Virus record (IMG/VR): IMGVR_UViG_3300021400_001148
Coordinates: 96,001 to 160,000 of that record
Length of the DNA: 64,000 nucleotides
Source: a virus
Lineage: Duplodnaviria > Caudoviricetes
Reading direction: 5' to 3' (one strand)
In this document: positions 17,607-54,034 of the stretch, piece by piece
How positions within the stretch are numbered: the first letter of the stretch is position 1
How the letters are laid out: each line of letters starts with the position of its first letter
Position numbers and translations under genes: made by a program
Notes under the pieces: generated by a model
What the model was told of the DNA's origin: nothing
Database searches by the model: none
Seen by the model: only the letters and a program-made list of their open reading frames with translations

Positions 17607-17608
17607 CC

Positions 17609-27614: not shown

Positions 27615-27920
27615 ATCTTGTTCTTCTTTGTTACAAAGGTACAAAAAACTCTCCGGACTATGGCGGATTTGGCGCAGCGTATGCGGATGTTACAAAAGTG
27701 GTGTTTACAAATGTAACATTCGAAAATGTAACATAAGTAATTGTTACAGAGGAAGTTATAAAAAAATATATTAAGTTACGAAAAAATTTTGAAACATCCC
27801 CCGGGGTAGGCGCAAGGAGGAAATGTCGGCACAAACAACTAATATAACAAAAAAATTTGGGACCCCCGGGGAGTTAGGCGCAAAAGTGGCAGCCCCGCTT
27901 GCGCCTAAAAAGAAAACGGG

Positions 27921-28896
27921 TCAGACCCGTTTCTTCTTCCGGCCGCGTGTTTTTTTCTCACTGCCTATTTCAGTTATTTTCTTTTTCTTCTCGTCCCATT
28001 TGTAGTGAGGGGTTTTGAAATAATCCAAACTTTTTTTATACCAATTTGGCAGGTTTGGCATCCGCCCGCACCCGACACGCAACATCGCATCGTTTATTTC
28101 CTTTTCAGTAAACATTATTTTATCCTCCTTATTTTGCTTTCAGCCACCCTCAGAATTCCGTTGATACGGGAATCGTCCTCAACGAAGAATCCGATGTAAT
28201 CTTCATTTTTGTGTTCCTCTGCGTAGGCAACAGCATCGTCACCGGTTTTCTTTATATACAGCCAATAGTTTTCGGCCGGCAGGTTGTGATATCGCCTTGC
28301 AATATCAACCGCAGTGCGGACATTTGCTGTTATCATTTGACGTATTCAATTGATTCGGGAATATCAAGGGCGAAGTCCTCCGCATCCCAATACCTACCAT
28401 CTGACATGCCGTTGAGGAATTCAAGTTGCGCCTGCTCATAAATTTCCTTGTCTTCTTCGGGCCCAACAAACTTGAAGTGCTCGTCAAACTCCTCACCCCA
28501 TTCTGCAATTTCGCTCATATAGGGGTCGATAACCCTCTCGCATTCGAAAGAGAAATAGTTCTCATCATTCGCGGGGCAGAAGAAAGGATACTGGTCTTCC
28601 ATAGTCTCCCGTGCATGTTCCCAACATACAACATCGCCACTGTTTACGGTCCTGAACTCCGGGGCGTACTGGTAGACATAAACATTCTCGACAGACCACT
28701 CTTTCTCCTTGCTGAGCAGTTCCTCGTTGCAGGCCATACCGAAAAGGTCTTTCAATTCAGAGTCATTTGCCGGAACGGCTGAAAGAACGATATTGTCATC
28801 GGCCTGATTTCCGTCAATCCATTTTACCCTGCCGATAACCCCGTGGCGATAATCGTATACAAGTTCACCCTTTGTTAATTCATGATGTCTTTTCAT
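27921..28896 (-). CDS. Unit of three hypothetical ORFs (28333-28896, 28115-28336, 27921-28115)
   Basis: Coupled ORFs behind promoter 28917-28924. Confidence 0.65.
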
Positions 28897-28983
28897 AACT
28901 TTTTCCTTTTGTATTACAAAGATAAGGAAAACATTTGATACTTTATTTGTTTTGGCGCAGCGAGGGCAGCCACCCTTGCGCCT

Positions 28984-29013
28984 AAAAGAAAATGGTACTC
29001 GTCTGAGTACCAT
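28984..29013 (-). terminator. Intrinsic terminator (representative; most units end in a hairpin plus U-tract abutting the dyad)
   Basis: ATGGTACTC-AGAC-GAGTACCAT followed by TTTCTTTT on the minus strand. Confidence 0.7.
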
Positions 29014-29714
29014 TATCCCCATAGGTTGTGAGTAACTTCTTTCATCTTCTCGATACGAGGGCCCCAAGTCTTTTCAAATTCCGCGTTTTGATATTCATAT
29101 CCGCGGCGGAGAGACCTTGATGCCTGCATCCGTGATATGTAGGCCTCTTCGTTGGTTGTCTTATAAACCTTGTAGGGCTTGTTGGTGTTGAGGCGGCAGT
29201 CCCATGTGGTGACATCTGCTTTTTCCAGTGTACTCTGATTGAGCTTCACCACCCACTTGTGGTTACCATAGTCAAGCACACAGATATAGACTGTAGCCAT
29301 GGTCTTGCGCTGTTTGCGTTCAGCATCCCTTGCGACCATATCGGCATTCACCTTACAGTCCTGCCTTGAGTCGCACCGCTGAATATCCATCCCGTGTTTC
29401 TTACCCACAAGATACGCCTTGTTCTCCCACCGCCATCCGTGGTGTTCATAAGGCCAACCCATCACATTGCACCAAAGGTGGCACATTTCGTGCAGGAGCA
29501 CCTTGAGGTATTCCTTTTCAGGAACATCGTAGTAATCGGAAATCTTGATGGTGTGAATGCCATAGGCTTCCGGTTTGTGCTGGCCGAGCATATGATAGGT
29601 GTGAGTTATCTTAAACCTGATACGGCTGACAGGCGGGAGGTCATTGTTGAAATCTTCCGCATTGTATTTCTCGTACCAACTTTTAAGTGTGTCAATTGTG
29701 AGTTTGAATTGCAT
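29013..29714 (-). CDS. SprT-like zinc metalloprotease
   Basis: YEKYNAEDFNNDLP...LGQH...VLLHEMCH...HGWRW. Confidence 0.8.
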   Translation of the reverse strand: MQFKLTIDTLKSWYEKYNAEDFNNDLPPVSRIRFKITHTYHMLGQHKPEAYGIHTIKISDYYDVPEKEYLKVLLHEMCHLWCNVMGWPYEHHGWRWENKAYLVGKKHGMDIQRCDSRQDCKVNADMVARDAERKQRKTMATVYICVLDYGNHKWVVKLNQSTLEKADVTTWDCRLNTNKPYKVYKTTNEEAYISRMQASRSLRRGYEYQNAEFEKTWGPRIEKMKEVTHNLWG

Positions 29715-29834
29715 AGTCCTTTTCTTTTTGTTACTCAAAGATACAAAAAAAAGTCCGAGACGTCCAAACATTAGGCGCAACCGCGGCAGCCACCCTTGCG
29801 CCTAAAAAAAAAATACGGGCCGAAACCCGTATGT

Positions 29835-30428
29835 TTAAAACTCTTTCTGATAGTTGATTGCCACTTCCTTGTTTTCATCGTCGGTGGCATTTGCACACGC
29901 ATCGAAAATCAGCCAAGCAAGTTTGCGGTCGCGGGATGCAGTGCGGTGTTCCTCTTCAGTGTCATCCACAAACATCTCGTCCCACCACATATTGATTGCG
30001 GTGTCGCTGAGTTTTCTAAGTTGCTCCTTGATGCTTTCATCTTGTTTGAGCTCATCAATGTCAGCATCGCACGGACCGGAATGATATCCCTTTTCAATCT
30101 GTGCGGGGGTAAGGATGAGGTCAATAGGGAATGAGGAGCCACTTGAAACCATATAGGCAAGACCAAGACTCACGAGATAATCGTACTCTGTGATAACCTT
30201 TTCTTCGTGGTTATCATCCCCGAAAATGGTGTCAATTTGGGCGTCTTCCCTTGAGCCGTAGGCAACCCAATCCCCGTCCTTGTCCGCCCATTCAAACGCA
30301 CGGCCGGTCTTTTCGTTGATGATAACAAAATTGACTTTGGAATCCTCAATGTATTCGTTTATACTCTTACCGAGGCTATTTGCCTTGTCCTTGAGCAGTG
30401 TGTAAATTTTCTGTGAAAGTCCTAACAT
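29835..30428 (-). CDS. Hypothetical protein
   Basis: Single-gene unit; start set by promoter 30454-30461. Confidence 0.7.
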   Translation of the reverse strand: MLGLSQKIYTLLKDKANSLGKSINEYIEDSKVNFVIINEKTGRAFEWADKDGDWVAYGSREDAQIDTIFGDDNHEEKVITEYDYLVSLGLAYMVSSGSSFPIDLILTPAQIEKGYHSGPCDADIDELKQDESIKEQLRKLSDTAINMWWDEMFVDDTEEEHRTASRDRKLAWLIFDACANATDDENKEVAINYQKEF

Positions 30429-30553
30429 GATTCTGTCCTTTTTGATTACATCACAAAGATAGTATTTAATTTCGTGATGGTGTTGGATTAGGCGCAAAGC
30501 CGGCAGCCACCCCTGCGCCTAAAAGAAAACCCCGGTGTGCTCCGGGGTATCCT

Positions 30554-31458
30554 CTATCGCATAAATTGGATGATGGTTTCAAGGTCGGTGTCATCAGCCA
30601 CCTTCATCAAATAATCATAGGAATATTTGTCCCAATCGAAATCGCTGAGGTAGACTTCTTCCGTGCCGTTGAAAATTTCCTTGTCCACCATTTCTTCCCA
30701 GTCCCGATAATAGAGGGCTTTCATAACCCAGCCGAGTTTATCCCAAGGGGCGGTGGCGAAAATCTTGTTTATTTTCTCGACAAGTTCGGGGTTGTGCCCG
30801 TTAGTGGTGTCCATTGCGTTGGAAATCCTTGTACAAGCAACCTGCCCAGAAGAAAGATTGTCAAAAATTTCGGCCTCGAAAAAAGTATCCCTTGAAGCAT
30901 CCACCATGTATCTTGCTTTCTCAATAGCATCACTCCTATTTTTTGCACTGACAATCTTATTTACCTGCGTGTTGTAAAAAAGTGTTACGCTGTAGAGTTG
31001 TTCCATTTTCTATTCCTCCTCTTCATCATTGTTTTCGTCTTCATCCTCATCTTCGTCCTGAGGGCCGTATTCATATTCTTCCCAGTTGTCGTAGCCGAGG
31101 TGCTGAGCAATGAAATTCCTTTCAAACCAAAGGAAATCATTGATTGCAGTTTTAGTCGGTGGTTCATCGCTATCGCAAAAGCATTCGTCAATGAACGATT
31201 CTACGGAATCCACATCGCCTTTTTCGATAAGAGTGTCGAGGGTGTCTCTTCCACCGCTCCAAGCCTCGAAGTGCTCAAGGTCTGTTTCCACCAAGTATTT
31301 CATATGCTTTTTACTGCTTTGATTAAACTTTTCTTAAAGTACTCCCGTGCGTATTTGGCAATAGCCTTTTTCTTCGCACTTGCAAGGTCTTTGGCCTCGA
31401 TGGTGTAGGTCTCGCAAGGCCCGTAGTGGTAATCCACAAAAATTTCGAATGTCTTCAT
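30554..31458 (-). CDS. Unit of three hypothetical ORFs (31300-31458, 31010-31303, 30554-31006)
   Basis: Coupled ORFs behind promoter 31480-31487. Confidence 0.65.
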
Positions 31459-31600
31459 ATCTTGTTCCCTTTTGTATTACAAATATAGTGAATGTATTTC
31501 AGAGATTGTCCGGCCAGGCGCAAAGTGGGCAGCCGACCTTGCGCCTAAAAGAAATGCCCCGGGAAAAGGAGCCCCGGGGCGAAACAAAAAGAACAAGACA

Positions 31601-32499
31601 TTACACTGTGTTCCAAATACTCCAGTGTATTTCATCATCGTATTTGAGGGCATCATTCCAGAGTTGCTCCAGATGGTGTGCCCAAGCCTGAAACTGCGGG
31701 GACATCGTTTCCAAATTCACTTTCCTGCCAAGAGAGACATTTGCAAAGGAATCAACATCACTCCAATTGCACCGGATTACACTTCCATCACTCGCCTGCG
31801 AACAGCCGACATAAGTTCCGGCAAGCCCCTCTCTCTTCCGAAGTTTTTTGTTGAGGGGAAAATAAAGGGAATATTCATCAACGTATCCCTCGTATTGTTT
31901 AGGTGCTCGGTAAAGTCTTATTTTCATTTCTCAGTTGTCTTAAGTGGCAATAAATAAACTCAAGGTCATCGGTTGACAATTGTCCCATACCACACTGTCT
32001 GCCTTCTTCATCGAAGAAACAAAGGCTCTCCGTTTCGTCAACATAAAAAAGAGCAATTTTGGTTTCGACCGGGTTGTGCCCGTTTTCATCCAAATGGTAG
32101 TAAGTGAGTTCATCGGTGGCTTTGGTATATGCCATCCGTTTTTCAGTATCGATTTCGGTCAGCAGACGGATTATATCCTTTTCCATCTGCCTACGAATCT
32201 TCACAATCTCAGCGAGCCAGTTTTTCATGTTCGAGAATTTTAAGAATAGCCTTTATCTCGGAAAAATCAAAAGACATAAGGTCATCAATCTCGCGTTTTC
32301 CGTCAATGTCAGTGGAGACACTGAACTTGCCCCCATTGAGAGATTGGCTGATTGAAACCAGCGTATGCTCTCTCAGCTCCTCGTAGTAGAAGAGTTTTAT
32401 CTTCGTTTCGGGAGCAAACTCGTGATAAAACCCCGGGGCAGGAAGATAGGACTTTGCATTTGAGATGAGAGCCCTTTTATTTTTTGGATTCTTTACCAT
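31601..32499 (-). CDS. Unit of three hypothetical ORFs (32209-32499, 31899-32228, 31601-31927)
   Basis: Behind the half-site promoter 32524-32531. Confidence 0.65.
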
Positions 32500-32731: not shown

Positions 32732-32861
32732 ATTCTTTTCCTTTTTGTTACATTGCAAAGATACTATCATTTTTTGATTTGCTGGTGGGTGTGGCGCAAT
32801 GACGGCAGCCGGCCTTGCGCCTAAGAAAAAAGTTGCGGTAAAAAATACCGCAACCGCCAGC

Positions 32862-33437: not shown

Positions 33438-33568
33438 TGCTTTTTGTTCTTTCTGTTTTGCAATACAAATATAGTAAATCCTGTACAAAACCCAGTAAAT
33501 TCAGCGCAAAGCCGGCTGCCAATCTTGCGCCTAAAAAAGAAAACCCCGCATCAGCAGGGGTTCTTCTA

Positions 33569-34288: not shown

Positions 34289-34487
34289 ATTCTTGTTCTC
34301 TTTTGTTACAATACAAAGATAGCAACATAAAATCGTACTCATCCGAGTACGGCGCAATGCGGGCTGCCAATCTTGCGCCTAAAAGAAAAAATGCCGGGAA
34401 AGGCCATTTTTAGGCGATTTCCGGCACTTTAAGAAAAAAGATGATGTGGAACACCACTTTAACCTTGCGGGGTTAATATAGGGGGTT

Positions 34488-35154: not shown

Positions 35155-35442
35155 ATCTTTGTCTTTTTGTTTACATTACAAAGATAGCAAAAACTTGTAT
35201 GCACCCAGCAGGTTAGGCGCAGTCTCGGCAGCCCACTTTGCGCCTAAAAAATCACCGCAGTTTCCCGCGGTGGTTTCTAAATCATTTCAACCCTTGTCAC
35301 CAGGCCTTTCAGTGGATAGCAACCGATTCTTTTCATATCGGAGATGAAATTCTTTTGCCAATCTTCGGCCTTTTCCTTGCTGTCAAATTCGTAGCAGGTG
35401 TTCACCACTCCGTCCACTATAGTCTTGAATACCCACATATCC

Positions 35443-35844: not shown

Positions 35845-36030
35845 GTTCTTGTTCCTTTTGTATAACAAAGATAATAAAAAAAGACGAAAGGATGACGGGC
35901 AAGGCGCAACCGCGGCAGCCTGCCTTGCGCCCATAAAAAAACCACGGGGTCTATCGTTTCGGTGGGTCGAAAATACCGCCTCTTAAAACCTACTGTGCTC
36001 GCCCGTGGATTGCAACAAAGATATGAAAAC

Positions 36031-36222
36031 TTAGTCTTCTTCGTTTCTGAGTTTCTGTATGTAAATTGCCTTGAGTTTCTTCTCCCTCTTCACAACGGAA
36101 GGCTTCTTGAATTCCTGCCGTTCCCTCTGTTCCTTTATGAGTTTGGTGTTGTTACATTTCCTCTTGAAAATCTTGAGGTATTTCTCAATTTTATCCGATT
36201 CTTCTACTGGCACTCTTAGCAT
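36031..36222 (-). CDS. rpsU: Ribosomal protein bS21, Bacteroidota type
   Basis: MLRVPVEESDKIEKYLKIFKRK...KEQRERQEFKKPSVVKR...KAIY, 63 aa. Confidence 0.9.
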   Translation of the reverse strand: MLRVPVEESDKIEKYLKIFKRKCNNTKLIKEQRERQEFKKPSVVKREKKLKAIYIQKLRNEED

Positions 36223-36413
36223 TTTCGTGTTGTTTTCTTTCTTATTTTTTTTAGCCACCCATCCCCGCACCGCCCGGGGAGTTCTCTCAGATAAGGAGAG
36301 CGGTCTCACTTTACCAGCCAACTATTTCAGACTGGCCTTTAATCCTAATGGGTAATAGCCGTCCGCTTTATTTATACTCGAGCAGACGGTCGAGTGGGGA
36401 GAAACCAAGGGCA

Positions 36414-36470
36414 GGGCACCGAGCACACCAACATAGTTTGTGGTTTACAGCCGTCTTTAAGCCAAGGCCC
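36414..36470 (-). ncRNA. Candidate structured RNA motif Y, diverged copy in the rpsU leader
   Basis: Shares GGCTTAAA..CGGCTGTAAACC..AACTATGTTGGTGTG..CGGTGCCC with 45811 and 53018. Confidence 0.5.
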
Positions 36471-36528
36471 GTGGTTTCGTATCACAAATATACAAAAACT
36501 TTCGTAATTTATAAATAGTTCGGTGCAA

Positions 36529-36693: not shown

Positions 36694-36816
36694 ATCGTTT
36701 CCTTTTTGTATAACAAAGATAATAATTCTAGTTCCAAACTTTGTAGGTACGGCGCAAAGTCGGCAGCCACCCTTGCGCCTAAAAAGAAAATGGTACTCAG
36801 TTGAGTACCACCCTCT

Positions 36817-37602: not shown

Positions 37603-37719
37603 ATCTTTGTTCTTTTGTTTACATCACAAAAGTAGTGAATTTTTTTCAGAACTTCACTTGTTAGGCGCAGCGGGGGCAGCCTGCCTTGCGCCTAAAAGAA
37701 AAACCCGCAGGTGCGGGCT

Positions 37720-38430: not shown

Positions 38431-38603
38431 ATCCGTTCCTTTTACATTACAAATATAGTTAATGTTTTTCATTGACTGTCCGTTTTGGCGCAACGGGGGC
38501 AGCCGGCTTTGCGCCAAAAAGAAAATAGGTAGCCCCACTCCCAAAGGATGTACAAACCCCGGGGGAATAGGACTATCCTGTTGTAGTCTTTTTTTTTCGA
38601 GAT

Positions 38604-39777
38604 TTACTTTTCTAATGATGGCAGTCCGACAACTTTCCTGATTCGGTTTGCTATACTAAAGCAATCCCTTGCCAAATCCTCACCGCACTCTTTCTCCCCG
38701 AACGGCGGTTCCCATAGATACTGTTCACCCCTCTCGCGGATATACACCTGCGCGTCTTCCAGTATTTGCTTATCTTTTTTTCCGATTACTATAATCATGG
38801 CTTTATTCGTTAATGGTTTTGTTTACCACTCCCTCAGTTCGTTTATGTTTTTATTTACCACCACCTCAAACAGTGCGTTGACTGCTTTTTTGATTGTCGG
38901 ATAGAATTTGCCCTTAAGGAAAACCCTTTCCCCGTTGGCATCGCGCACATAATCGCACCAAACCTTTCCATAGGCAAGCCCTCTGCCGATACGCAGGTAT
39001 GCCACCTTACCATCATCCGTGCTAATCATAGGTGCAAGGCTCATGAATGTTTCTTCTGTTTTCATATCTCTTTTGCTTTTATCTACTGCAAATATAGGTA
39101 TTTTATTTCATTTCAGTGCAGGTACGGCGCAGCATCGGCAGCCACCCTTGCGCTTAAAAAGAAATGGGGCGAACCCCATTCTCTACCTTGTCACGAACTG
39201 CCGGATTTTTTCATAAACAAGTTCTCTTGCATTTTCGCGGTATTCATCGTACCACGCGGACTCGCCATCGTCTTCATATGGTTCACCGTTTGCATCAAGT
39301 ATCTGATACTCGTCTTCCGTCTTTTTAACGGCAGTATTCACAATATCATTCGCCAGAGTGTAAATTGCGTCCTCAATGCTGATGTCTTCAATGCACTCGT
39401 TGAGGACTTTTTCTGCGGTAAAAACTGAAATCGTTTCCTTTTTCATACTAATTGTGGTCTATAATGTGAAGATAGATATGGGAAAGTTGCTCGTTGTCAA
39501 GGGCGTCAATCGGGGTACTCTCCTTGTAGCACATACCACCCTCGTCCATAAATTCATAGTCAACGGTTGTTTCGCTGGTGACAAGACGCTCCCTTTCGTT
39601 GATGATAGGGGTGATGTTTGTATAGTGATACTGACCACCTGTGAAATCGTCATTCTCCCGCCCGTTGAGTTCTCCGTTTTCAATGTGGTGGCAGATTGCT
39701 GTGATATAAACTTTGTGGAGGTCTTCCTTCAGTTGGGTGATTCGCTCTTTGTAATAATCTGAAATTGTCTTTACCAT
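38604..39777 (-). CDS. Four hypothetical ORFs in two units (39448-39777, 39183-39446, 38823-39065, 38604-38798)
   Basis: Behind promoters 39797 and 39089. Confidence 0.65.
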
Positions 39778-40077
39778 TTTGTTTCCTTTTGTATAACAAA
39801 GATAGTAAAATATCCTCACCACTTGTCGGGTAAGGCGCAACATCGGCTGCCAGTCCTGCGCTTAAAAGAAAATGGTACTCAGTTGAGTACCACTCTCTTA
39901 TAAATCGTGCTCATTCATCCAATCCACATCCACGAAGTATGCGGAACTTCCGAAGTCATCCATACCCTTGTCATTATTGATAAGGTAAGCGTTGTCATCA
40001 AATCCCTCGACCATCATAAGGTCCTGGATTTCGGGCCAACCAACAGCCACATAGTTTCCTGTCCTGTTTGTCATATC

Positions 40078-40617: not shown

Positions 40618-40741
40618 ACCTTTGTTCTTTTGTTTGCATTACAAATATAGTAAAAGTTTCCCTTATTTCTTGGATGTGGGCGCAACCGCGGCAGCCTGCC
40701 TTGCGCCCAAAAAGAAATCCGCCAAACGGGGCGGACTTCTG

Positions 40742-41308: not shown

Positions 41309-41412
41309 GATGTTTTTCCTTTTGACAATACAAATATAGTGTGTTTCCGTCAGATTTCGGCTTGCACGGCGCAGCATCGGCAGCCGACCTTGCGCCTAAA
41401 AAAAAAGAGGCA

Positions 41413-41865: not shown

Positions 41866-42115
41866 AGTCTTTATCTTTTTCTCAAAACAAATATAATGAA
41901 AAGATTTCTGCCTGTTGGTGATTAAGCGCAGTACCGGCAGCCACCCTTGCGCCTAAAAGAAAACCCCCGGGGCGGTCGCAACACTCGCTCCGAGGTACAT
42001 ACAACCTCCGCCGTTTTCGTGGTGGTTAGGGAACATTTTGCGAATTTCCTTAATCCAGCCCAGCATCTTAGATTGTTTTCGCGGACTTATGCAATCATCC
42101 GTTTTTATTTCTTCC

Positions 42116-42558: not shown

Positions 42559-42660
42559 GTCATTTCCTTTTGACATTACAAATATAGCGAAAAACTCTGA
42601 ATTTTCGGCTGGTCAGGCGCAAAACCGGCAGCCAGCCTTGCGCCAAAAAAAAAGAGGAGA

Positions 42661-43209
42661 TTACTCCCCTCTTGCCTTTACCATATTTTCTTCATGCCGT
42701 CGCTCGTCCTGCAGGTCATTCACAAAATCCTTGCGTTCCGCCTTGTTGCGTTTTTCATTGGCTTTGAGGACAGCGTTTCGGTTGCCTGCGATACGAATCC
42801 AACAGTAAATTGTGCCGCGTTTCTCGACCTCGTAGGTAATTACATTGGTATTGTCCGCCCGAAGCTCAGCCGTTCCGCTTGTAAATGTCCAATTGGTAAA
42901 GTCCTTTGTGTATTCATCTTCACCGCTGGCACGCGAGGTACGACTTTCCGCGTAGGTCTCCGTCTTGGCCGTGATTCTTTTCACAAACTCACCGCGGAGG
43001 TCATTTTCGAGTTCGGCCTGTTTGCTCCTGCGGACGATGTCGGAAGCACCCACGGGGTAAGTTGTGTAACCCTCAACAAAGACAACATTCTTGTCCTTGA
43101 CTTCCTCGAAAGGAGAACCGATTTTGTTGGGCTGGAGAGAGAAATCCTTGATGGTTCCGCAAGACACCGCAAGCAGAACAAAAACCATGATTGTAAATAA
43201 CTTCTTCAT
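42661..43209 (-). CDS. Lipoprotein
   Basis: MKKLFTIMVFVLLAVSC lipobox. Confidence 0.75.
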   Translation of the reverse strand: MKKLFTIMVFVLLAVSCGTIKDFSLQPNKIGSPFEEVKDKNVVFVEGYTTYPVGASDIVRRSKQAELENDLRGEFVKRITAKTETYAESRTSRASGEDEYTKDFTNWTFTSGTAELRADNTNVITYEVEKRGTIYCWIRIAGNRNAVLKANEKRNKAERKDFVNDLQDERRHEENMVKARGE

Positions 43210-43310
43210 ATTCGTTCCTTTTTCTATTACAAATATAGTGATAATTTTTGATAGTCTTGGGGTTTCGGCGCAAAGTCGGCAGCCACCCTTGCGCCCAAAA
43301 AAGAAAACCT

Positions 43311-44942
43311 CTATCCGATGGACTTGAGGTATTCCTTTATTTTCCAGAGCATTTCTGCAGGGGTTTCCACTTTCTTGCGGTGCATCACCCACGAAGTTCG
43401 CTCGTTTGTGGTGTTCATCATGGTCTCGTTGCAGAGAATATAAATCCGTTCATAACCCCCCACCCCCACAAAGGTTGCGATACCAACGGGATTTTCCCCA
43501 CAATATTCAGACTTTACAAAGCCGAGGTTTGTCAACTCTTTTTCGAGTTCAGCCTGCTCCGAGGTGTTTTTGAAACGATAGTACATATTACCTGCTCCAA
43601 ATTGGTTGTTTGAAAATATTGTCCTCGCGTGAAATGTTCCACGCCTTTTCTACCTGCTCCCAAGTAAGACCGAAAAGTTCAAGGTCTTCTTCGGGGTTGA
43701 ACTGGTATTCGTCCCAATAGGTCTCCGGGGACTGCCAATCGACCATGTTGAAAACAAACTCCGCAACCTTTTCAAATCCTTCTCCACCCACGAGGTTGAG
43801 GAGGTCTTCGTAAGTCCAGCCGTTATTTTTGAAAACTTCTTCTCTCGATTCCTCATATTCTTCCCTTGTCAGTTCGTTGAAGATAAACTTTTCCTTGAGG
43901 TCTGCAAGGTCGTCTTCAATCTGCTCAAGGCCGAACTCCGAGATATAGCAAATACCTTTCTTTTCACCAAAAGCTTTCTTGTCTTTGTAGCAAACGCCAT
44001 TGAAAGTGCTTTCCCCAGTGTAGGAGAGGACTTTTCCATTTTCCTCTTCGTGGCGATAACCGATTGTTGCGAAAACTATTTTCATCTTTTTCCCTTTCGT
44101 TACTACAAAGATAATAAAATAAAATCATATTCGTTTGGGTACAGCGCAATGCCGGCAGCCGCCTTCGCGCCAAAAGAAAAGGGGCGGCACCCCAGCGGCC
44201 ACCCCATTGAAACCGTACTCACTTGAGTACTATATGCCGAGCAACTGCCCCATCAGCATAAGTCCTTCAACGGCCTTGACATCCTCCTCGCTGTTCATCA
44301 CGATGTTGGAGTTTGCCAGCATCTCCTTCTGACGCGGGCTGCAGGCGTCATGGATTTTCTTGAAATTCTGGAACATGGCTTCAGCCTTTTCACTTTCAGC
44401 CTTTGCCTTGCGGTCAATCAGCTGGGCGTAAACCTCACCCTGAAGGTCTTTGGGAAGTTTGGCGATGGCTTTCTTGAGAGCAGATTCGTAGTCGAATCTC
44501 TGCCAGTCGCGACCGCACCATGACACCTTGCTGTCACTCATGTTGTGGGTAATACAGCGGACTGTCTCACAGTAACCCATACGGGTGTCGGTAGACCAAG
44601 CTTTGAAAATAACGAGTTCACCGTTGACATTAGCCTCGAAACGGCTCTGATTGTATACTTTTGCCATAGTCGTAAGAATTAGCGGTTTAACATATCTTTG
44701 AGTTCCTTGAGTCCGTTGACAATCTCAACTTCAGCGGTGTAAACACCCTTGACTGAATCCCACACGCGTCTTGTAACCTCAACCTTTTCGATTACCCCAT
44801 CCCCGTTGATTCGCAGGGAAATGATTGGCCTGTTACCTTTTGACCAGTCTTCGAGGTGAGCCAACCCCATCCCAGGCACTTCGTTGGTCTTCCTATAGCC
44901 AGCTGCCTTGAGGTTCCTTTTTGCACTTTCGTAGTTAATCAT
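43311..44942 (-). CDS. Four hypothetical ORFs in two units (44679-44942, 44230-44667, 43588-44085, 43311-43586)
   Basis: Behind promoters 44963 and 44106. Confidence 0.65.
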
Positions 44943-45034
44943 ATCTTTTCCTTTTGACATTACAAATATACCACAATTTTATTATAAATTTGTGGCATAG
45001 GCGCAACCACGGCAGCCTTCCTTGCGCCCAAAAG

Positions 45035-45335
45035 AAAAAGCCCCGTGGCTGGGGCAAGTTCAACAAATCTAAAAAATCGAGTAATAAAATAAATAATATA
45101 TCTTGTTCCTCTTGGCGGTTGGGTGGTTCAGTAGTGGTTTGCCAGACCTTCTACTTATCGAGGGTTTTCAATTGACCTCGCACCCTTTGTTCCTCCCTTT
45201 GGGAGAATGCCGACAGCCTCCTAACTTTCCCCTTTTTGCCATTTAGGTCTTCTTGGCGGTGGTGGCCACTCACTGGGGTAATGCTTACTCTTGGTTTGTC
45301 GTAGTGCTTAGAGTTTCGTACCTAACTTCGTTTGT
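45035..45335 (-). ncRNA. Candidate ~300-nt noncoding RNA
   Basis: Promoter 45340-45347 and terminator GCCCC-AGCCAC-GGGGC-TTTTT with no credible ORF between. Confidence 0.5.
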
Positions 45336-45401
45336 ATTACAAATATACTACATTTTGTTTTTGTTTTGTCAGTTCCGGCGCAACGCACGCCCCTCCCACT
45401 T

Positions 45402-47120
45402 TTATACACTAATTTTAATCATGTCGGGAAGTCCGTTGGCAGAGTAGCCCCACCACTGCCTGCTGACCTTGAACCCCTCGGAGGTAAGGAATTTGATAAG
45501 GGCGGGGAACTTTTTGTTATCAAAAATTCCTACCTTGCAACCCTCGGCAGACGATGTACCACAAAGGGAATCAATGCAGACATATCCAATCCTCTTGATG
45601 CCTGCGGCTATCGTGGAAAGAATCTCATCTTTCCTCGGCATAATCTCGTTGTCAATAATCTGCTGGTCAGTGTTGGCCATTTCGGCTTTGAGTGTTTCTG
45701 CGTAGTTCATATCTTTGTCCTTTTGTTTACATAACAAAGATAGTGAAATTATTTGAAAACATACCAACCAAGGCGCAACCGCGGCAGCCGCTTTTGCGCC
45801 AAAAAGAAAAGGGGGCACCGGTCACACCAACATAGTTGGGTTTACAGCCGAATTTAAGCCCCTTGTTTCTATATGTCGCAGAACCTGTTTACAAGCCTTA
45901 TACTGCCGTTTGCAAGTTTCTCATTGAAAAACCTTTCGGACATACTCCAAAAATCGGAAATGCTCAGTTCCTCTGGGTTTTTGACCTTGCAGAAAGTGTA
46001 ATATGTCGCACCATATATCTGCCTCGTTTCCTTTGTGCGGAAGTAAAGTTCTTCTTTACCCGAATAAGGAAATTTGTAAGCGATTATCTGACCAATTTCT
46101 ACCATAGTTGTTCTCGTTTGTTTCTATACAAATGTAACGAAAACATTTGAAAGCCTTTCAGCTTCGGCGCAGCAGAGGTCAAACCTCTTCTTCAAGGTAC
46201 TTGACAAGCTCCTTCTCGTTATCGGTGGTAAACATATACTGCCCAGCAAACCCCGACCAAAAAAGATGCACCTGCCATATGGTGGCGAAAACATAATTGT
46301 AGCCACGCCTATCAAAAAGCACATAATAGGCAGTATCGTTGATAAGCACAGGCTGAACGGTTTCGTCCGACCTATCACAGTATTCAACATCAAGCCATTT
46401 GATTCTATTTTTCATATCCGTCTAATAATAACCGTTTGCAAGGTTTTTAATTTCCTTTTTCATATCCTCATTGTTGGAGATGATTACATCCCTGCGGACG
46501 GGGTCTCGGCTTGGTTCGTCGAAATAATATCCCCTTTGTGTATGCACAGAATTTATCTCAACAAGTTCCCCGCCGCCCAAAAGAGGGCTGGTTTTTACTG
46601 AATACCCCCTTTCAAGAAGTTTCTGAAATGTTTCATTGTCTATGAACTTACTCATAACCTTTTCTTTTTGTATTACAAATGTAATGATTTAGAATGTAAA
46701 TCTCGGGAGTGAGGCGCAAAGGCGGCTGCCAGCCTTGCGCTTAAAGGAAAACCCCGGGGTTGCTCATGTCCCGGGGATTGTTAGAGGATTTGCTGAAGAT
46801 AACCCCACTCTTGGGAACCTTGTCGGTTTATTCAAATCCTACCAAATTGTCAGGAATGCGTAATCGTTGTCCTTGTCAGCCTCTTCGAGAATAAGGCTGG
46901 CGGTTGTACCCCAAACCTCGTCTTTTTCCATTTTTCTTAATGTGGAGAAAGGAATTTCAACCTCGGTTTCTTCTTCATTGATAAAGATACCGTCATCTAT
47001 TTCAGTGCCCATTTTTGAACGGAGGAACTGAAGGAATTTCTCTACCTCGTCCCAGCCATTGATGGCGTTTCGGCCGTATTCTACTTTGTAGATTTTTGCT
47101 GTGTGTAATGATAATGCCAT
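45402..47120 (-). CDS. Five hypothetical ORFs (46839-47120, 46422-46655, 46179-46415, 45869-46105, 45402-45710)
   Basis: Each first ORF starts about 20-25 bp after a TAnnTTTG box. Confidence 0.65.
45811..45862 (-). ncRNA. Candidate structured RNA motif Y / terminator
   Basis: GGGGC...GCCCC closing stem, inner CCAAC-TAT-GTTGG; identical copy at 53018-53069. Confidence 0.5.
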
Positions 47121-47418
47121 AGTGTTGTGTTTTTCTTACAGTACAAAGATAGTAAGATAAAGTCGTACTCATCCGAGTACGGCGCAGTGCCGGCAGCCGC
47201 CTTTGCGCTTAAAAAGAAAAGGGGATTTCTCCCCTCTCTCAAATCTCTCAAAAGTTATTCCCCAATGTAGACAACACTTGCACCGAGTGTCGGCATATTA
47301 CTGTTGAGGTATTTTTGTGCTTCTTCTGGTGTCTTGAACCGCACAGGCTTATGAAATCCGTTAAGTGTTCCAAACGTCGGGCCCCAACCGCCCTCGACGA
47401 GCACCAAGCCGTCCATTC

Positions 47419-48223
47419 CTATTCCGTACATACGCGTTTCGTCATTTGTTGTACTCTGAGCAAATTTGATTTGCGTGTTCCGTTCATATATTCCAAGAGA
47501 GTGGCAAGGTCTTCAGTCTCAAAGAAATGCTCTGAAGCAAGGACAGTCTGCTCATCACCATACGCGGACTTTACCGTTATTTTGAGAAAACCAAGGTTGT
47601 CTTGAAACACCTCAAAAACATCGGGATAAGCCCCAGTTTCATCGGGGTATGATACAGCCACATCACAGTAGACTTTCTCTTCCTCCTCCACTTCATCCCA
47701 TCTGCGGAAAATAAATTTGGTTCTATTTTCAGTGAGGGCAATCATTTCAGCAAGTATGCCTTTGCGAATTTCTTTGAGAACAGTTGTGTAATTCATATTC
47801 GTTTCCTTTTTACAATACAAATATAATGAAAAACTTTCCGTTGCTGGTGAATTTGGCGCAAAGCCGGCAGCCAGCCTTGCGCCTAAAAAGAAAAGGGGAT
47901 TTCTCCCCCTTTCGTTAGTCGATGTAGCCGAATGTGCCGTCCGCAAGGCCTTTCCTGCGTTCCTTTGCGTTGTAACCGCACCACCGCCCGACATGGCCCG
48001 AAGTGGTGTGGGAGCAGTCATGCTCACAGCCGAAATAGTAGCGACCTTCGCTCCTGATATACACACCCACGATGGTTTCGTAGGACTGAAAAACCTCTCC
48101 GTTTTCATAGTAGATTATGAACTGATTGGGGGCTTTGCCATAGCCGTTTCTGGAGGGGCCGTTGGTTATCTTCCTGAGGGTGCCGAGTTTGGCAGAGAGC
48201 TGGGACATTGTCATTTTTTCCAT
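47419..48223 (-). CDS. Two hypothetical ORFs in separate units (47915-48223, 47419-47796)
   Basis: Starts set by promoters 48249 and 47818. Confidence 0.65.
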
Positions 48224-48356
48224 ATCTTCTTGTTTTCTGATTACATTACAAAGATACAACATTTTCTTTAGTGTGCTGTAGGTTGGGCGCAACGGGGGCA
48301 GCCGCCTTTGCGCCTAAAAAGAAACGGAATGGTGTCCCACTCCGTTTCCACATATA

Positions 48357-48422
48357 GCCGTCTTCGAGCGGTTTTACCTCTACCTCATTACCCCAAAAGG
48401 TAAGCCCGGTGTTAGATTCGGC
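48357..48422 (-). ncRNA. Candidate structured RNA motif X, copy 1
   Basis: Three-way junction with compensatory changes relative to 50294-50360. Confidence 0.6.
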
Positions 48423-48688: not shown

Positions 48689-48807
48689 ATCATTTCCTTT
48701 TGACATTACAAATATAATACAATTATCGCAAATGCTGTCAGTTTCGGCGCAGCATCGGCAGCCGCCTTAGCGCCCAAAGGAAAACCCTCGCTCGGAGGGT
48801 TGCCCAA

Positions 48808-49605
48808 TCAGTAGATTTTTTCCTGATACTTCACTCGCCCCGTAGGGGTTTTGATAGTGATTTCTATGTACTTCCGCTTTTCGCCCTCGCACTCCACTTC
48901 GTAGTATTCGGAGTGTTTGCGTTCAAAGTCATCTATGTAGTTCTCCTCGCCCCTCTTGACTGAGATAGTGTCCTTGCTACCCCTTGCCTTGCGGAGTTCT
49001 TCAAGTATCCTTGCACACTTGTTCGGCTTGTTGTCAAGGAAACACCTCTCGCCATACTCGTCCCAAAGCCTTCCCCTCTTGCCACCCATAGCCGCGGAGA
49101 AGAGTTCATAGTTTCCGAGCGGCTTGTTGTACCCACCGAAGTTGGGGCCAGCCAGCGCGTACTTGTTGAGGTAGTTCTGCAAGGCCTTGTACTCCTTGCA
49201 AGGGGCATCTGCAAGGCAGACCTTTGCGATGTACTTCAACTTGTAGGTACACCAATAGGAAACCCCATTGTTGTACTCTATGGTATCTTCGACCACAGAC
49301 AGACCGCTCCACCCCTTTGTTTTCTTCAGCTGGTCAAACATCTTGCCGAGTTCGCAGAACACTTCGGAAATATCGGTGCGAGTTTTTACACTGCCCATTT
49401 CCTTGTTGTTCATCTTGATGGTGTAGGAATCGGTGTACCTCTTCCCATCTTTGTCCCACTTATCATTATCCCACACTGCGAAGTCCACCATTTGGCTCTT
49501 CCTGCTCCAAGAACCGAGAGGGAGACCTTTGTTAGACTTGCGTGTGCTTGCAAGGGCGGTCTTTGCCGCCTTGAAAATCTTTTCTGCCAATGTCTTGTTG
49601 TCCAT
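48808..49605 (-). CDS. Basic hypothetical protein
   Basis: Single-gene unit, 265 aa. Confidence 0.7.
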   Translation of the reverse strand: MDNKTLAEKIFKAAKTALASTRKSNKGLPLGSWSRKSQMVDFAVWDNDKWDKDGKRYTDSYTIKMNNKEMGSVKTRTDISEVFCELGKMFDQLKKTKGWSGLSVVEDTIEYNNGVSYWCTYKLKYIAKVCLADAPCKEYKALQNYLNKYALAGPNFGGYNKPLGNYELFSAAMGGKRGRLWDEYGERCFLDNKPNKCARILEELRKARGSKDTISVKRGEENYIDDFERKHSEYYEVECEGEKRKYIEITIKTPTGRVKYQEKIY

Positions 49606-49727
49606 ACCTTTGTGCTTTTGTTTACATTACAAAGATACACATTTCTCCGCAAGGCCGGTGTCCGGTGGCGCGGACGGGGCAGCCATCATCGCGCCGAGAA
49701 GAAAACCCTCACTTGGAGGGTTCGCTT

Positions 49728-51927
49728 TTACTGCTCAGCCTGAGCCTTTTCGTACTCCTTTGCAAGGTCAAGGAGGAAACTGAACACATCAGCCGCGTTC
49801 TCCCAACCTCCGTCAAGGACATCACACCACGCGCCATCACAAAGCCACTTCGGAGATTTTTTGTCTTCGGGGTCATAGTTCGGATTCTTGTAATAAACAA
49901 AACTCTCGAACCAATTGTTATTGTCCACATACACGCGTTCATCGTTCCATGCCTTTCCATTGTGGAAAAGTTCCACAAGTTCTTCGGGAAACTGTGAGGA
50001 CGCTCTATAGGATTCGTCATTGAAAACCACACGGACATCTCCTGCAACCCTGATAGAAACATAAAGACCGTCAGTTTCAAGGCTGGCAACTTCCTGACCG
50101 CTGTCGAGTTCCATTGAATCGTTTACACCGAGAAGAAAATCGGCTACTGAAAAATCGTATTTCATATCTTTGTTTCTTGGTTTATACAAATATAGTAATA
50201 AAATCCCAGACCTACTCCACCAAGGCGCAGCATCGGCAGCCGACCTTGCGCCAAAAAAGAAACGGAATGGCGTCCCACTCCGTTTCAGAAAAAGTCGGCT
50301 TCGAGCGGTTTTATCTCTACCTCATTACCCCAAAGGGCAAGCCCGGTGTCAAGCTTCGACTATATTTCAAACATATCCCTGACCATACTCTCAAGGTCTT
50401 TCGCTGTTTTAACACCCCTCCGCCTGAACTCCTCATTCAACTGCCTTGTGGTTACATACTTTGAGCAAGCGTAATATTCAGACGGATAGGATACTTCAAT
50501 CACCCTGAAAGTGCCTGTCTTCCAATCGTAGTCACATTCCCCCTCCCATGTGGCGTCTCCCGTACAGAAAGGATATGCACTGGAGCGTAAAGCAACTACC
50601 TCTGCGTGTGCTTTGAAACCCAATTTCTTTGCAGTATCGTTGATGAACTTTGCGAAAACTTTGCTAACTTGTACTTTCATAGTGTGTTCCCTTGTTTGCA
50701 TTACAAATATAGCCAATTTCTTTGAAAGGGCGGTCTTGTCTGGCGCAGCGGGGGCAGCCTGCCTTGCGCCTGAAAGAAAACCCCGAGAGCAATGCCCCCG
50801 GGGGAAACCAAAAAACATCAGTCGATATACCCGAGAAATCTCGTTTCATACACTCCCCAGCCATCGGCTATATACCAATCATGGGCTTTCTGCTCAGCCT
50901 CTTCCTCCGAGGAGGCCACGATGATTTCTTTTCTCGTTCTGCTTTCGTGATAGGGAAGCCCGAGGACAAAAAGTGTCGCTTCGTACTTTCCCGCCTTTGT
51001 CTCTGGCTCATAGGTAAGGCCGAGAAAATGCTTTGCAATTTCAAAGGTGTCTGCGTAGGGGTTTTCCTCAATGAATTTCCCCAGTTCTTTTTCAATAAAT
51101 CCGTCTCTTGACATAGTGTATTGTGTTTTGGTGTTTGCCTATTTGAAAATCGCCCAAAAATCAAGTTTGCAGACCAGCTCATCAACCTTGTTGCCCACCC
51201 TTTGGGCGAGTTCCCAAGCACCCTCATCAACCACTCCGTTTTCATCCTCGAAAACCTCTCCATCCGCACACCAATCAACGAACCTTTCAGTTCCCTGCTC
51301 CAACTCAATGTCATTGTAGAGCATATTGGTAATCTGATTTGCGACTTTCTTGATTTGTTCCTTTGTGTAATGCTTAACCATAGTGTTTGTTCTTTTACAT
51401 AACAAAGATAAGAAAAATCTCTTCCAGACCAGCGGACAAGGCGCAGCATCGGCAGCCGACCTTGCGCCACAAAAAAAAACGGAGGGTATCTCACGACAGC
51501 CCCCGTTACCCCTTATCTAACCCTATCTAAAATCTTATTCTTCTTCGTGTTCGTGCATACGGACTTCTTCCTTGCCGAAAAAAGCCTGCTCGAAAGTGGT
51601 TTTGAGGTTCCGCCTTTCCCACTTGTCCTTGATGTTGTAGGTGTGGATTACAAGCGGCTCGCCTTTGAGGATACAGACCATAAAGTCAATTCCGAGGGTT
51701 TTTCTACCATATTCAACGGATTCAGCCATACCACAGGGCTTTCCCTGCTCTGCAAGGCACTCCGTAAACCTTTCAAGGAGGTCGGCGCCAGTTTTTCTTA
51801 CAGTGAGGTAGACATTCTCCCCCTTTTCATACTTTTCGTATGCCTTCGGGAAGTCGATGAAGAGGTCGCCACTGCAAGAGTGGATATAATTCGCACAAAT
51901 GTGGAATATGTTGCAGATGTATTTCAT
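49728..51927 (-). CDS. Five hypothetical ORFs (51535-51927, 51139-51381, 50818-51114, 50360-50680, 49728-50165)
   Basis: Starts set by the unit promoters. Confidence 0.65.
50294..50360 (-). ncRNA. Candidate structured RNA motif X, copy 2
   Basis: See copy 1; followed by the same AAACGGA terminator. Confidence 0.6.
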
Positions 51928-52080
51928 ATACCTTTCTTTTACATTACAAATATAAACAAATTTCTTCGTTGTTTGCTGTCTTTGGCGCAGCGTGGGCAGC
52001 CACCATTGCGCCCACAAGTGTTTCCCACCCGCCATCTTCTCTGATTTACCCAATGATAGCAGGTGGGATTTTTTTTTATT

Positions 52081-52476
52081 CTATATCAAATTTTCAAGAT
52101 TTTCAAGATAGTACTTTATCGCTGCTTCGCAGGCTTCTTCATATTCCAAGGATTCACACTGATGGTAATCATCTTCGCAAGGTTTAGATGTCATTGGCTT
52201 AACATATGCATACCATAAGTGCTCCCATTCTGTATCAATGGCAATGTTATGCACTTCCCTCAACCACTTCATTGCCATTTGAAGAGTAGGTGCAGTACAT
52301 TCAAAATAGTTTTTTGTTATATCATTGTAATTAGAATTACGAATACTATCATATCTATTTAACTTACACAAGTCACCATAAGGCATATAAACCATTGATG
52401 TGCTCCAATCAAACCCCTTTTCCTTCAGGAGTTTTGCCGTTTCAAAACTAATATAGTCTTCATTATTAAGCACCAT
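52081..52476 (-). CDS. Hypothetical protein, paralogue family B
   Basis: EDYISFETAKLLKEKGFD...PTLQMAMKWLREVH. Confidence 0.8.
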   Translation of the reverse strand: MVLNNEDYISFETAKLLKEKGFDWSTSMVYMPYGDLCKLNRYDSIRNSNYNDITKNYFECTAPTLQMAMKWLREVHNIAIDTEWEHLWYAYVKPMTSKPCEDDYHQCESLEYEEACEAAIKYYLENLENLI

Positions 52477-52478
52477 AT

Positions 52479-52916
52479 TTATTCCTCCTTTTTTCTATTA
52501 AAATGAGTTGCTCCCCATTCAGCGAAGTAACGGGCGATATACGCATAGTCTTCGGGCTCTATATTGGTAGTATCAGCCACACTCGCATCGTGATATGTTT
52601 GCTCTATGATTTTCTCCAACTCCGCCCTTGCCGCCTCCGCCTCCAGCTGGCTTCCGTAAAGAAATTCTTGAACAGTAGGCCCTATATTACCCCAAGGCTC
52701 TAATTCTTTCCATTCCTTTTCAAGTTGCTCTTTCGGTGTTGTAGCAAGGTGGTGTTTAAGTTCTGCAACCAAATCCACCTCCGGCTGCTCCTGTTGGAGA
52801 GAGGTAGCAAATAAAAGAAGTTCATTAAGCCTTTTGTTAGCAACTCGGCTCTCTTTTAAGTCGATAAGCCTTTTTATCTCGGCTATCAGTTTTTCCGCGT
52901 CAATGTATTTAATCAT
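52479..52916 (-). CDS. Hypothetical protein, paralogue family D
   Basis: KYIDAEKLIAEI...SLQQEQPEVD. Confidence 0.75.
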   Translation of the reverse strand: MIKYIDAEKLIAEIKRLIDLKESRVANKRLNELLLFATSLQQEQPEVDLVAELKHHLATTPKEQLEKEWKELEPWGNIGPTVQEFLYGSQLEAEAARAELEKIIEQTYHDASVADTTNIEPEDYAYIARYFAEWGATHFNRKKEE

Positions 52917-52974
52917 GACTATAATTTTTAATGTTGCACTACAAATATAAGAAAACAATCTCAAACCCTGTCAG

Positions 52975-53074
52975 CCAAGGCGCAACCGCGGCAGCCGCTT
53001 TTGCGCCAAAAAGAAAAGGGGGCACCGGTCACACCAACATAGTTGGGTTTACAGCCGAATTTAAGCCCCTTGTT
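52975..53074. repeat. 100-bp exact duplicate of 45768-45867
   Basis: Dyad, A-tract and motif Y identical base for base. Confidence 0.9.
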
Positions 53075-53079
53075 ATTTG

Positions 53080-53948
53080 TCAGATTTTACCGAACACCGC
53101 ACCCTTGACGAAGTTATAAACCTCTCTGATGGTTTTCTTGCTGAGGTTTTCCCAAGGCAGGAGCACAATGTTGTCGCTCTCGCCATCGTTGTCATCGATG
53201 ATGATGCCACCAGGGCAGACTTCGGCCATAAACGCACTTCCAATCATAACGGGGTGCGTTTCCATAAAGTCGTAGTCGAGTTTGGGCATATGGAGCATCT
53301 CTACCCTGCGGGCGGCCCTAAGCATAGCCTCAAAGAACCAATCGTTCTGGTCGGTCTTGAACGAATCGTTGTACTTTTCTACTACCGCAGCAATCTTGCG
53401 AATCATTTTCTTTGTTCTCATGTCTTGTTCTCGTTTGGTATTACAAAGATAAACAATTTTATTTCCACCCTGCGGGTTTCGGCGCAACGGGGGCAGCCGA
53501 CTTTGCGCCTACAACGAACCCCCGAGGACCGCTCCCCGGGGGACAACAACCAAAACACAAACTATGAGAGTTAAACAAACACTACATTCTCGTTTAATAT
53601 TTCCATAAAGTGGTCAAAGTCCGCAGGACCGACACCGACACTATTTCCGCCAAGCGAAAAACTTCCGTTTTCGGGAAAGGCCGACACCTCTTTGAGGGAA
53701 TTTTCAGCGATTTTCACACCATAAGCGAAAGTAAATGCTTTGTTGGACTTCACTTGTTTCCTCCACCCAATCTTCCTTACACGCCTATCGAAAAACTGTA
53801 TACCTTTCTTTTTTGCAAGCTCCTCATCAGCCTTTTCTTCTGCCGATGAAAGGTCCTTTGCGTCAATGTGAAAACACACACTTCCGTATTGTGGCCAGTT
53901 GTTTATTACAAACTTGCTTTGGCAAGTCACACTGAAAATCTTTGTCAT
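53080..53948 (-). CDS. Two hypothetical ORFs in the first two units of the array (53571-53948, 53080-53421)
   Basis: Starts set by promoters 53968 and 53444. Confidence 0.65.
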
Positions 53949-54034
53949 ATCCCTTTCGTTTACATTACAAAGATACGAAAACATTTGAAGGGCCTTGCTG
54001 ATTGGGCGCAACCTCGGCAGCCACCTTTGCGCTG

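Follow-up and report, generated by a model that had tools for sequence, protein, structure and literature searches.

Within a window of 64,000 nucleotides of the virus record IMGVR_UViG_3300021400_001148, 36 units of small genes are each preceded by a copy of the same 29-bp palindrome, GGCGCAR-N4-GGCWGCC-N4-YTGCGCC, placed at a nearly constant distance from a Bacteroidota-type promoter. The locus raises the question of what this palindrome does and why it stands in front of every unit of the array. The virus record is complete, 354,809 bp long and bounded by direct terminal repeats; the window takes up its bases 96001-160000, and all coordinates refer to the window unless given as genome coordinates. 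An earlier sequence-only reading of this DNA had described an array of self-contained expression units, each keyed by the dyad, and had proposed an undescribed phage regulon or cassette system addressed by a single factor. The analysis reported here outlines a 26-kb block that is a hyperplastic region of orphan genes made of self-contained terminator-promoter-gene cassettes. The promoter-proximal arm of the palindrome also serves about 70 promoters throughout the genome as their upstream box, and the intergenic module that contains the palindrome is where cassettes are gained and lost between strains.

Anatomy of the cassette array

A pattern scan of the window returned 26 exact matches to the palindrome and 36 with up to three mismatches, against none in 100 shuffles. 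All 36 instances lie on the minus strand within the block spanning positions 27877-54033, as the sequence-only reading had reported, and a whole-genome scan with up to two mismatches, which that reading had put forward as a check, identified no further copies, the palindrome being restricted to the array. When the units are aligned on the palindrome, their order on the coding (minus) strand is uniform: a variable GC-rich hairpin, a T-tract (TTTtyTTTTa) and the 29-bp palindrome, followed by 29 non-conserved nucleotides, a TAT(A/C)TTTG box, an A-rich leader of 19-28 nt and the ATG of the first small open reading frame (ORF). Palindrome and TAnnTTTG box are separated by 29 nt in 33 of the units and by 30 nt in two, and the last unit (27877) presents only a degenerate box (TATATTAG) at 31 nt. 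A stable hairpin with a T-rich tract (at least seven T in 11 positions) abuts the palindrome, in fixed register, in 33 of the 36 units. The earlier account of a 29-bp distance (30 in two or three cases), and of a terminator U-tract ahead of each dyad, agrees well with these counts.

The T-tract, palindrome, 29-nt spacer, TAnnTTTG -7 box and A-rich leader make up a composite intergenic module of about 97 bp. In unit U43267, for example, the terminator hairpin and T-tract of the preceding unit (43296-43335) abut palindrome 20 (GGCGCAAGGGTGGCTGCCGACTTTGCGCC, 43267-43295, at about -70 to -42), which is followed by a non-conserved 29-nt spacer without a -33 TTTG element (43238-43266), the -7 box TATATTTG (43230-43237) and a 20-nt A-rich leader with a 182-aa ORF (42661-43229), all on the minus strand. 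Terminator-like sites are about twofold enriched (45 versus 21.9 ± 4.6 expected from shuffles) and sigma-70 consensus promoters occur at chance level (32 versus 26.7 ± 4.8), the promoter type used here being the Bacteroidota TAnnTTTG. Each unit hence has its own promoter and terminator, in line with the self-contained expression units originally described.

A simple gene call yielded 65 ORFs across the 36 units, typically one to three per unit and occasionally up to six, and paralogy is absent save for one weakly similar pair. The short A-rich leaders and unrelated small genes anticipated by the sequence-only reading were thus recovered, whereas its ceiling of three genes per unit was too low. 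Searches against Pfam left 61 of the 65 array proteins without a match, the four matches being to DUF6926, DUF6874, ribosomal protein S21 and a SprT-like family, and nine array proteins matched PHROGs families of unknown function. No relatives of the 403-aa protein flanking the array were found in IMG/VR.

The palindromes, each taken from the scan with up to three mismatches and all on the minus strand, are numbered from the last unit of the array to the first. They occupy positions 27877-27905 (palindrome 1, with the degenerate -7 box), 28954-28982 (2), 29774-29802 (3, with 30-nt spacing and the SprT-like cargo), 30491-30519 (4), 31517-31545 (5), 32793-32821 (6), 33503-33531 (7), 34351-34379 (8), 35216-35244 (9), 35903-35931 (10), 36751-36779 (11, whose unit holds the S21 gene), 37664-37692 (12), 38487-38515 (13), 39126-39154 (14), 39834-39862 (15), 40679-40707 (16), 41368-41396 (17), 41925-41953 (18, with DUF6926 cargo) and 42616-42644 (19). 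Beyond palindrome 20 they continue at 44143-44171 (21), 45000-45028 (22), 45772-45800 (23), 46713-46741 (24), 47181-47209 (25), 47855-47883 (26), 48286-48314 (27), 48746-48774 (28), 49667-49695 (29), 50224-50252 (30), 50742-50770 (31, with 30-nt spacing), 51440-51468 (32), 51984-52012 (33, without a T-tract upstream), 52979-53007 (34), 53481-53509 (35) and 54005-54033 (36, the first unit of the array, without a terminator upstream). The SprT-like metalloprotease-family protein, encoded at 29013-29714 (-), is the sole enzyme-like cargo recognized in the array.

Eleven studies of gut metagenomes from cattle, sheep and goats, with four RNA libraries included, contain the phage. Among the alignments to the array, joints with fewer than 40 nt on one side, which are palindrome-to-palindrome cross-alignments, were left out. 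Two studies supplied the 16 RNA-library contigs listed, and all of these except one stay inside one unit. Contigs from both studies cover the 182-aa gene of U43267 (42666-43208 and 42676-43207), and another (44247-44948) spans both genes of one unit. These contigs are compatible with unit-wise transcription.

Two stretches covered by RNA-library contigs contain no evident gene. The window region 45029-45340 (-) offers about 300 nt without a convincing ORF and ends at a terminator; it follows a promoter with an isolated TGCGCC box, described below, and an RNA-library contig (45037-45318) falls within it. This stretch may be a small RNA or micro-ORF cassette. The S21 gene (63 aa, 36031-36222, minus strand) lies in unit U36751 behind an internal TTTTTG-TATATTTG promoter near 36490, which is followed by about 270 nt without an ORF (upstream region 36223-36528); in both RNA libraries, summed contig depth peaks in the bin with this gene, a measure that does not rank expression. 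The ORF-free stretches with RNA coverage gave no Rfam match, and their fold z-scores were -0.07 (45029-45340) and -1.2.

A promoter box shared across the genome

The genome contains 429 TAnnTTTG boxes. The hexamer TGCGCC stands exactly 29 nt upstream of 65 of them and 30 nt upstream of three, with only two stray copies at any other distance within 100 nt. This hexamer is the proximal arm of the palindrome. At 36 of these promoters it occurs without the palindrome, with no distal arm, no centre block and nothing conserved upstream of the box, and 32 of these 36 single-box promoters are located outside the array, scattered over the genome. Counting both strands, the genome holds 134 TGCGCC hexamers, of which about 104 are explained by the box promoters and the distal arms of the palindromes. 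The Bacteroidota -7 element spans T-12 to G-5 (PMC6847099), and on this numbering the box lies at about -47 to -42 (centre at about -44.5) and the palindrome at -70 to -42 (centre at about -56). No -33 TTTG element was found in this promoter class. The proposal that the dyad by itself keys the units hence does not hold, since its proximal arm serves as the upstream box of about 70 promoters and half of these lack the palindrome. We found no earlier description of a bipartite promoter with a rigid GC-rich box at about -44.5 and a Bacteroidota -7 element in some 70 copies, of such a box being missing from the hosts and relatives sampled, nor of its being elaborated into an invariant tripartite palindrome confined to an array of orphan genes.

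Four single-box promoters fall inside units of the array, all on the minus strand: one in the last unit (TGCGCC-N29-TACCTTTG, 27634-27676), and others in U32793 (32524-32566), in U45772 (45340-45382, followed by the ORF-free stretch with an RNA-library contig) and in U46713 (46129-46171). Outside the array, the window contains a TGCGCC-N29-TATATTTG promoter on the plus strand (10535-10577), one of the 36 in the genome, and further single-box promoters on the minus strand at 21675-21717, 21834-21876 and 25755-25797. The sampled larger genes that follow single-box promoters code for an RlaP-like nucleotidyltransferase, an RNA ligase, a metallophosphatase and an AAA_33 kinase-like protein, as well as NADAR, DnaJ, a DUF3575 protein and a DUF2828/TROVE-like protein (genome coordinates of genes in this class: 17059-18279, 51357-51968, 63491-64186, 72804-73709, 201348-202448 and 327099-328745). 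The first four make up an RNA-repair-like set, and these genes together suggest that the box marks an accessory or counter-defence class. The sampled genes behind promoters with only TTTTTG-TATATTTG include those for DNA polymerase B, a gp32-like protein, a RecA/UvsX-like protein, a 5'-3' exonuclease, an SNF2 helicase, a SAM synthetase and a DNA methyltransferase; a second metallophosphatase sampled with them is of the single-box class. The sequence TATATTTGcaatATG is that of many single-box promoters, and in these the ATG begins 5 nt past the box (for example at genome 13429-13480, 51310-51360 and 54350-54400). This is the expected transcription start, and the mRNAs of such genes would hence be leaderless.

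The closest relatives of the phage S21 protein are those of the Bacteroidales (55-62% identity), and we searched Bacteroidales genomes for the bipartite pattern. No match was found in five ruminant Bacteroidales genomes, and 151 Bacteroidales genomes yielded 56 matches against about 33 for a reversed control, with at most three per genome, compared to 65 in the 0.355 Mb of the phage. A host-type promoter architecture was accordingly rejected, given that the pattern is at chance level in the Bacteroidales genomes sampled. Likewise, the bipartite promoter is absent from ten related giant phages with terminases 62-70% identical, including a complete 363-kb genome (G156), in which the canonical TTTG precedes the -7 boxes by 17-20 nt. 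Scans for exact copies of the palindrome returned isolated, chance-like matches and no arrays, with six stretches in IMG/VR and over 100 single matches in metagenome contigs, mostly in soil-type records. A scan for the variant GGCGCG...CGCGCC gave three single matches, and the pattern TGCGCC-N25-TTTGTATATTTG a single one in IMG/VR. The occurrence of the box at chance level in the sampled hosts and its absence from relatives indicate that it is private to a narrow phage lineage, and this points to a phage-encoded reader. The palindrome belongs to a phage-private promoter set, a candidate regulon. The earlier suggestion of a phage regulon addressed by one factor is supported to this extent, but no such factor was found.

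Three sigma-70-like genes are present, at genome positions 337220-337966 (+), 169686-170705 (-) and 248573-249340 (-). All three have orthologs in G156, at 36-43% identity versus 62% for the terminase, and are thus evolving fast. A sigma factor is unlikely to be the reader of the box, which ends 29 nt upstream of T-12, some 12 bp past the reach of sigma region 4; the occurrence of orthologs of all three sigma factors in G156, which lacks the box, also disfavours this candidate.

Cassette turnover between strains

The strain comparison drew on 20-kb loci from contigs of other samples in which array proteins recur in identical form. Cassette order is collinear in all the strains compared, and cassette content differs. 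Unit U49667, carrying palindrome 29, is missing from three strains, and three units, measuring 527, 441 and about 490 bp, were found only in other strains. The 527-bp cassette lies upstream of palindrome 31 and the 441-bp cassette is inserted at palindrome 21, an insertion seen again in an independent bovine run; upstream of palindrome 19, other strains have an extra cassette. In addition, strain loci L131 and L133 lack the second gene of U52979, and U38487 (palindrome 13) is 80% identical between strains, with neighbours at 95-100%.

Five indels were mapped. Repeats of 98, 40 and 93 nt spanning the module bound three of them, the junction repeat of 40 nt at the 441-bp cassette corresponding exactly to the T-tract plus the palindrome, and the two remaining indels have their breakpoints in a terminator or T-tract. 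The strain-only cassettes carry their own palindromes, one of them with a single mismatch in the centre block, and substitutions between orthologous modules are clustered in short patches that resemble gene conversion. Within the array itself, two stretches of 141 nt (45727-45867 and 52934-53074, at palindromes 23 and 34) are 89% identical and encompass the near-identical palindromes, the terminator and the 3' end of the upstream gene, although the two upstream genes are unrelated in other respects, a duplication that looks like the footprint of an exchange extending beyond the module. A second duplicated stretch spans 67 nt at 87% identity (48346-48412 and 50283-50349).

The sequence-only reading had recognized no integrase in the window, and none was detected in the whole genome either: searches with the Phage_integrase and Resolvase profiles, at E-values up to 0.1, identified no tyrosine or serine recombinase. 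Recombination genes are nonetheless present, encoding a RecA/UvsX-like protein, a gp32-like protein and a 5'-3' exonuclease. The notion of interchangeable cassettes with breakpoints in the dyad is therefore partly upheld, in that gains and losses break at the module, but the junctions fall at varying points of a shared module of 40-98 nt. The version of that notion in which a dedicated recombinase acts on the dyad finds no support in the absence of tyrosine and serine recombinases, the varying junctions and the collinear gene order.

Composite promoter-terminator cassette arrays are already known. Promoter-early stem-loops (PeSLs), described in the T4-type phages RB49, phi1, PST and nt-1, combine a terminator and an early promoter in a conserved module found on either side of orphan genes in hyperplastic regions, and give rise to indels through homologous exchange (PMC2839356, PMC4122927). 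The cassette system is hence not without a described analogue, contrary to the original proposal. As in PeSLs, small conserved composite modules of terminator and promoter are present in dozens of copies in an orphan-rich hyperplastic region, the cassettes are insulated, the insertions, deletions and replacements that distinguish close relatives have their breaks within the modules, and general phage recombination is presumed to act in place of a dedicated recombinase. The array described here differs in its phage lineage and host phylum, in its use of a Bacteroidota -7 promoter without a -33 element, in that the terminator stem is not the conserved part, and in the presence of an additional invariant tripartite palindrome whose proximal arm is a private box used by 36 promoters elsewhere. 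The array works like PeSLs and is not a member of that group by descent.

Reading of the palindrome

The 36 copies comprise 30 distinct palindromes, with blocks that are invariant and spacers that vary within the genome, and the centre block is the most invariant part (36/36). Across 45 orthologous module pairs from different strains, the palindrome blocks and the -7 box were substituted at 0.63% and 0.56% of positions, versus 5.8% in the N4 spacers, 2.5% in the 29-nt spacer and 4.5% in the terminator. Watson-Crick pairs between the N4 spacers are as frequent as expected from shuffles, with positions 7/21 pairing in none of the 36 copies and 13 copies showing a mismatched A-C at positions 6/22 of the coding strand. 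Furthermore, the palindrome begins right after the terminator T-tract, that is, in an untranscribed gap, and no T-tract follows it. Given the absence of covariation, the location after the U-tract and the purifying selection on the blocks, the palindrome shows the pattern typical of a double-stranded site that a protein contacts through three blocks, which their 11-bp spacing would place on one face of the helix. The sequence-only reading had favoured such a site over an RNA hairpin, and these data point the same way; its description of the N4 spacers as free and non-pairing is accurate as to pairing and overstated as to freedom, for position 8 is a G in 30 of the 36 copies. A structural role for the nucleic acid itself, as an RNA hairpin (a second terminator, processing site or stabilizer) or as a DNA cruciform or hairpin promoter of the kind used by phage N4, would draw on GC-rich arms of 6-7 bp that could pair, on the one RNA-library contig that enters the palindrome, and on the symmetric double change in unit U49667 (GGCGCG...CGCGCC), which preserves pairing in otherwise nearly invariant arms. 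Such pairing would leave a loop of 15-17 nt around a GGCWGCC centre that is unable to fold on itself, Rfam returned no match for a structured RNA, and no RNA polymerase subunit of the phage was found (no match to the beta subunit in its genome). Together with the spacer data and the position behind the U-tract, these observations leave a structural role very improbable.

If the site binds a protein, that protein might be a phage repressor silencing the whole array at once, as in early-gene shut-off, with TGCGCC alone serving the activator or polymerase and the distal arm and centre recruiting the repressor over the box. Such an operator would fit the confinement of the extra arm and centre to the array promoters, when 36 others work with the box alone, the invariance of the centre block and the overlap of the site with a box presumably required for activity. 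We nevertheless judge it unlikely, for a site centred at about -56 leaves the -7 element and the start site uncovered, and no repressor candidate was found. Considerably less probable is a site-specific recombination site, comparable to the attC sites of integrons, at which a dedicated recombinase or nuclease would cut and rejoin the DNA. As in attC arrays, unrelated small genes are split by a repeated imperfect palindrome and cassette presence differs between strains, with breaks at or beside the palindrome, once at exactly the T-tract plus palindrome, and with a palindrome copy on every strain-specific cassette. The junction repeats of 40-98 nt and the breakpoints in a terminator or between genes are those of homologous exchange and not of a fixed point, and the genome encodes no integrase of the tyrosine or serine type. 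Moreover, the proximal arm recurs as a promoter box at 36 places that lack the palindrome, each cassette has its own promoter and terminator, unlike integron cassettes, in an order that is collinear in all strains, and the palindrome is of fixed length with invariant blocks, whereas attC sites are conserved in structure and variable in sequence. The blocks also contain GCGC and GCWGC, and could in principle be methylation or restriction motifs through which phage methyltransferases tune promoter activity. Adjacent genes for a C5-cytosine and an N6/N4 methyltransferase lie just past the array, 6-8 kb upstream of it (60464-61531 and 61533-62807, both on the minus strand), and the 354,809-bp genome contains no GATC site versus about 1000 expected and a threefold depletion of CCWGG (106 versus 344), a composition that amounts to strong restriction avoidance. 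Elsewhere, however, GCGC and GCWGC show mild depletion or none, the conserved blocks extend beyond these motifs and the fixed 29-nt spacing is left unexplained, so that this explanation retains a barely appreciable probability. Elsewhere in the window, a 1907-aa ORF with YadA-head repeats (4600-10323, minus strand) probably encodes a fibre or adhesin.

Activator-dependent promoters that have a -10 element and no -35 element are known from several phages. T4 middle promoters use the MotA box, and the late promoters of P2 and P4 carry a TGT-N12-ACA dyad near -55 that is bound by Ogr/Delta. In phage Mu, the Mor-dependent promoter Pm lacks a -35 element and presents a 16-bp dyad centred at -43.5 (PMC4390567). 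The promoters analysed here resemble these in keeping the host downstream element, lacking the upstream sigma element and placing a phage-specific box at a rigid distance, and the centres of the box (about -44.5) and of the palindrome (about -56) are typical of such activators. They differ in their Bacteroidota host, in comprising about 70 promoters instead of a handful and in the coexistence of half and full tripartite forms of the site, and binding and activation are here predicted.

The reading that we favour, and hold to be on balance probable if not comfortably so, combines PeSL-like cassettes with phage-private, factor-dependent promoters, the palindrome acting as a shared control and the module as a crossover substrate. 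In this model, a phage-encoded DNA-binding factor would recognize TGCGCC and recruit or stabilize host RNA polymerase, as activators do at phage promoters without a -35 element. The bound factor would substitute for the missing -33 contact, in a manner comparable to Mor at -43.5 in Mu (PMC4390567). At the array, the same factor, alone or with a partner, might bind the tripartite palindrome as a dimer or higher oligomer, which would place the 36 cassettes under a common, array-specific control, be it activation or timed shut-off. Since the same module precedes every cassette, it would also supply the homology by which the UvsX/RecA-like and gp32-like proteins of the phage could add, delete and swap cassettes.

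A number of observations weigh against this combined reading. No homologs of Mor (PF08765), MotA (PF09114, MotA_activ) or Ogr/Delta (PF04606) were identified in the genome at E-values up to 1, no recognizable DNA-binding domain was detected among the array proteins with Pfam and PHROGs, and a host factor that binds TGCGCC at variable positions may be involved instead. The central base (the W of the centre block, T in 32 of 36 copies on the coding strand) and positions 7-8 break the symmetry of the site, making it a poor fit to a plain homodimer, and the distal arm and the invariant centre block are unaccounted for if a single box suffices at 36 promoters. In addition, seven strains compared over the lower half of the array have no indels there, the RNA evidence consists of assembled contigs with possible DNA carry-over, and one of these contigs (45447-45781) runs through a promoter and 10 nt into the palindrome.

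The block of many small genes of unknown function with promoters also recalls the host-takeover early clusters of SPO1 and T5, in which many such genes, with their own or a shared strong promoter, form one block. To our knowledge, no shared operator-like palindrome has been described in those clusters. For the present array, early timing and the role in host takeover or anti-defence proposed by the sequence-only reading are conjectural, 61 of the 65 proteins having no Pfam match.

A further and distinctly doubtful possibility is that the palindrome is an address tag, a site at which one phage protein would bind, license the transcription of every cassette and focus recombination. If so, orphan-gene cassettes would move only between, and be expressed only in, phages sharing the tag, and the array would be an integrase-free functional analogue of the integron with a built-in promoter dialect.

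Under the favoured reading of PeSL-like cassettes with factor-dependent promoters, the genome offers a clean and testable regulon of about 70 promoters, with the palindromic form confined to 36 orphan-gene cassettes. The giant phages of gut Bacteroidota are uncultured, and the factor binding these sites would reveal how such a phage directs the RNA polymerase of Bacteroidota; the promoters are also a possible source of orthogonal parts for the engineering of Bacteroides or Prevotella. The strain comparisons extend module-mediated shuffling of the PeSL type beyond the T4-type phages of Proteobacteria to a distinct lineage of ruminant phages, and thereby bear on how phages acquire and turn over their accessory genes.

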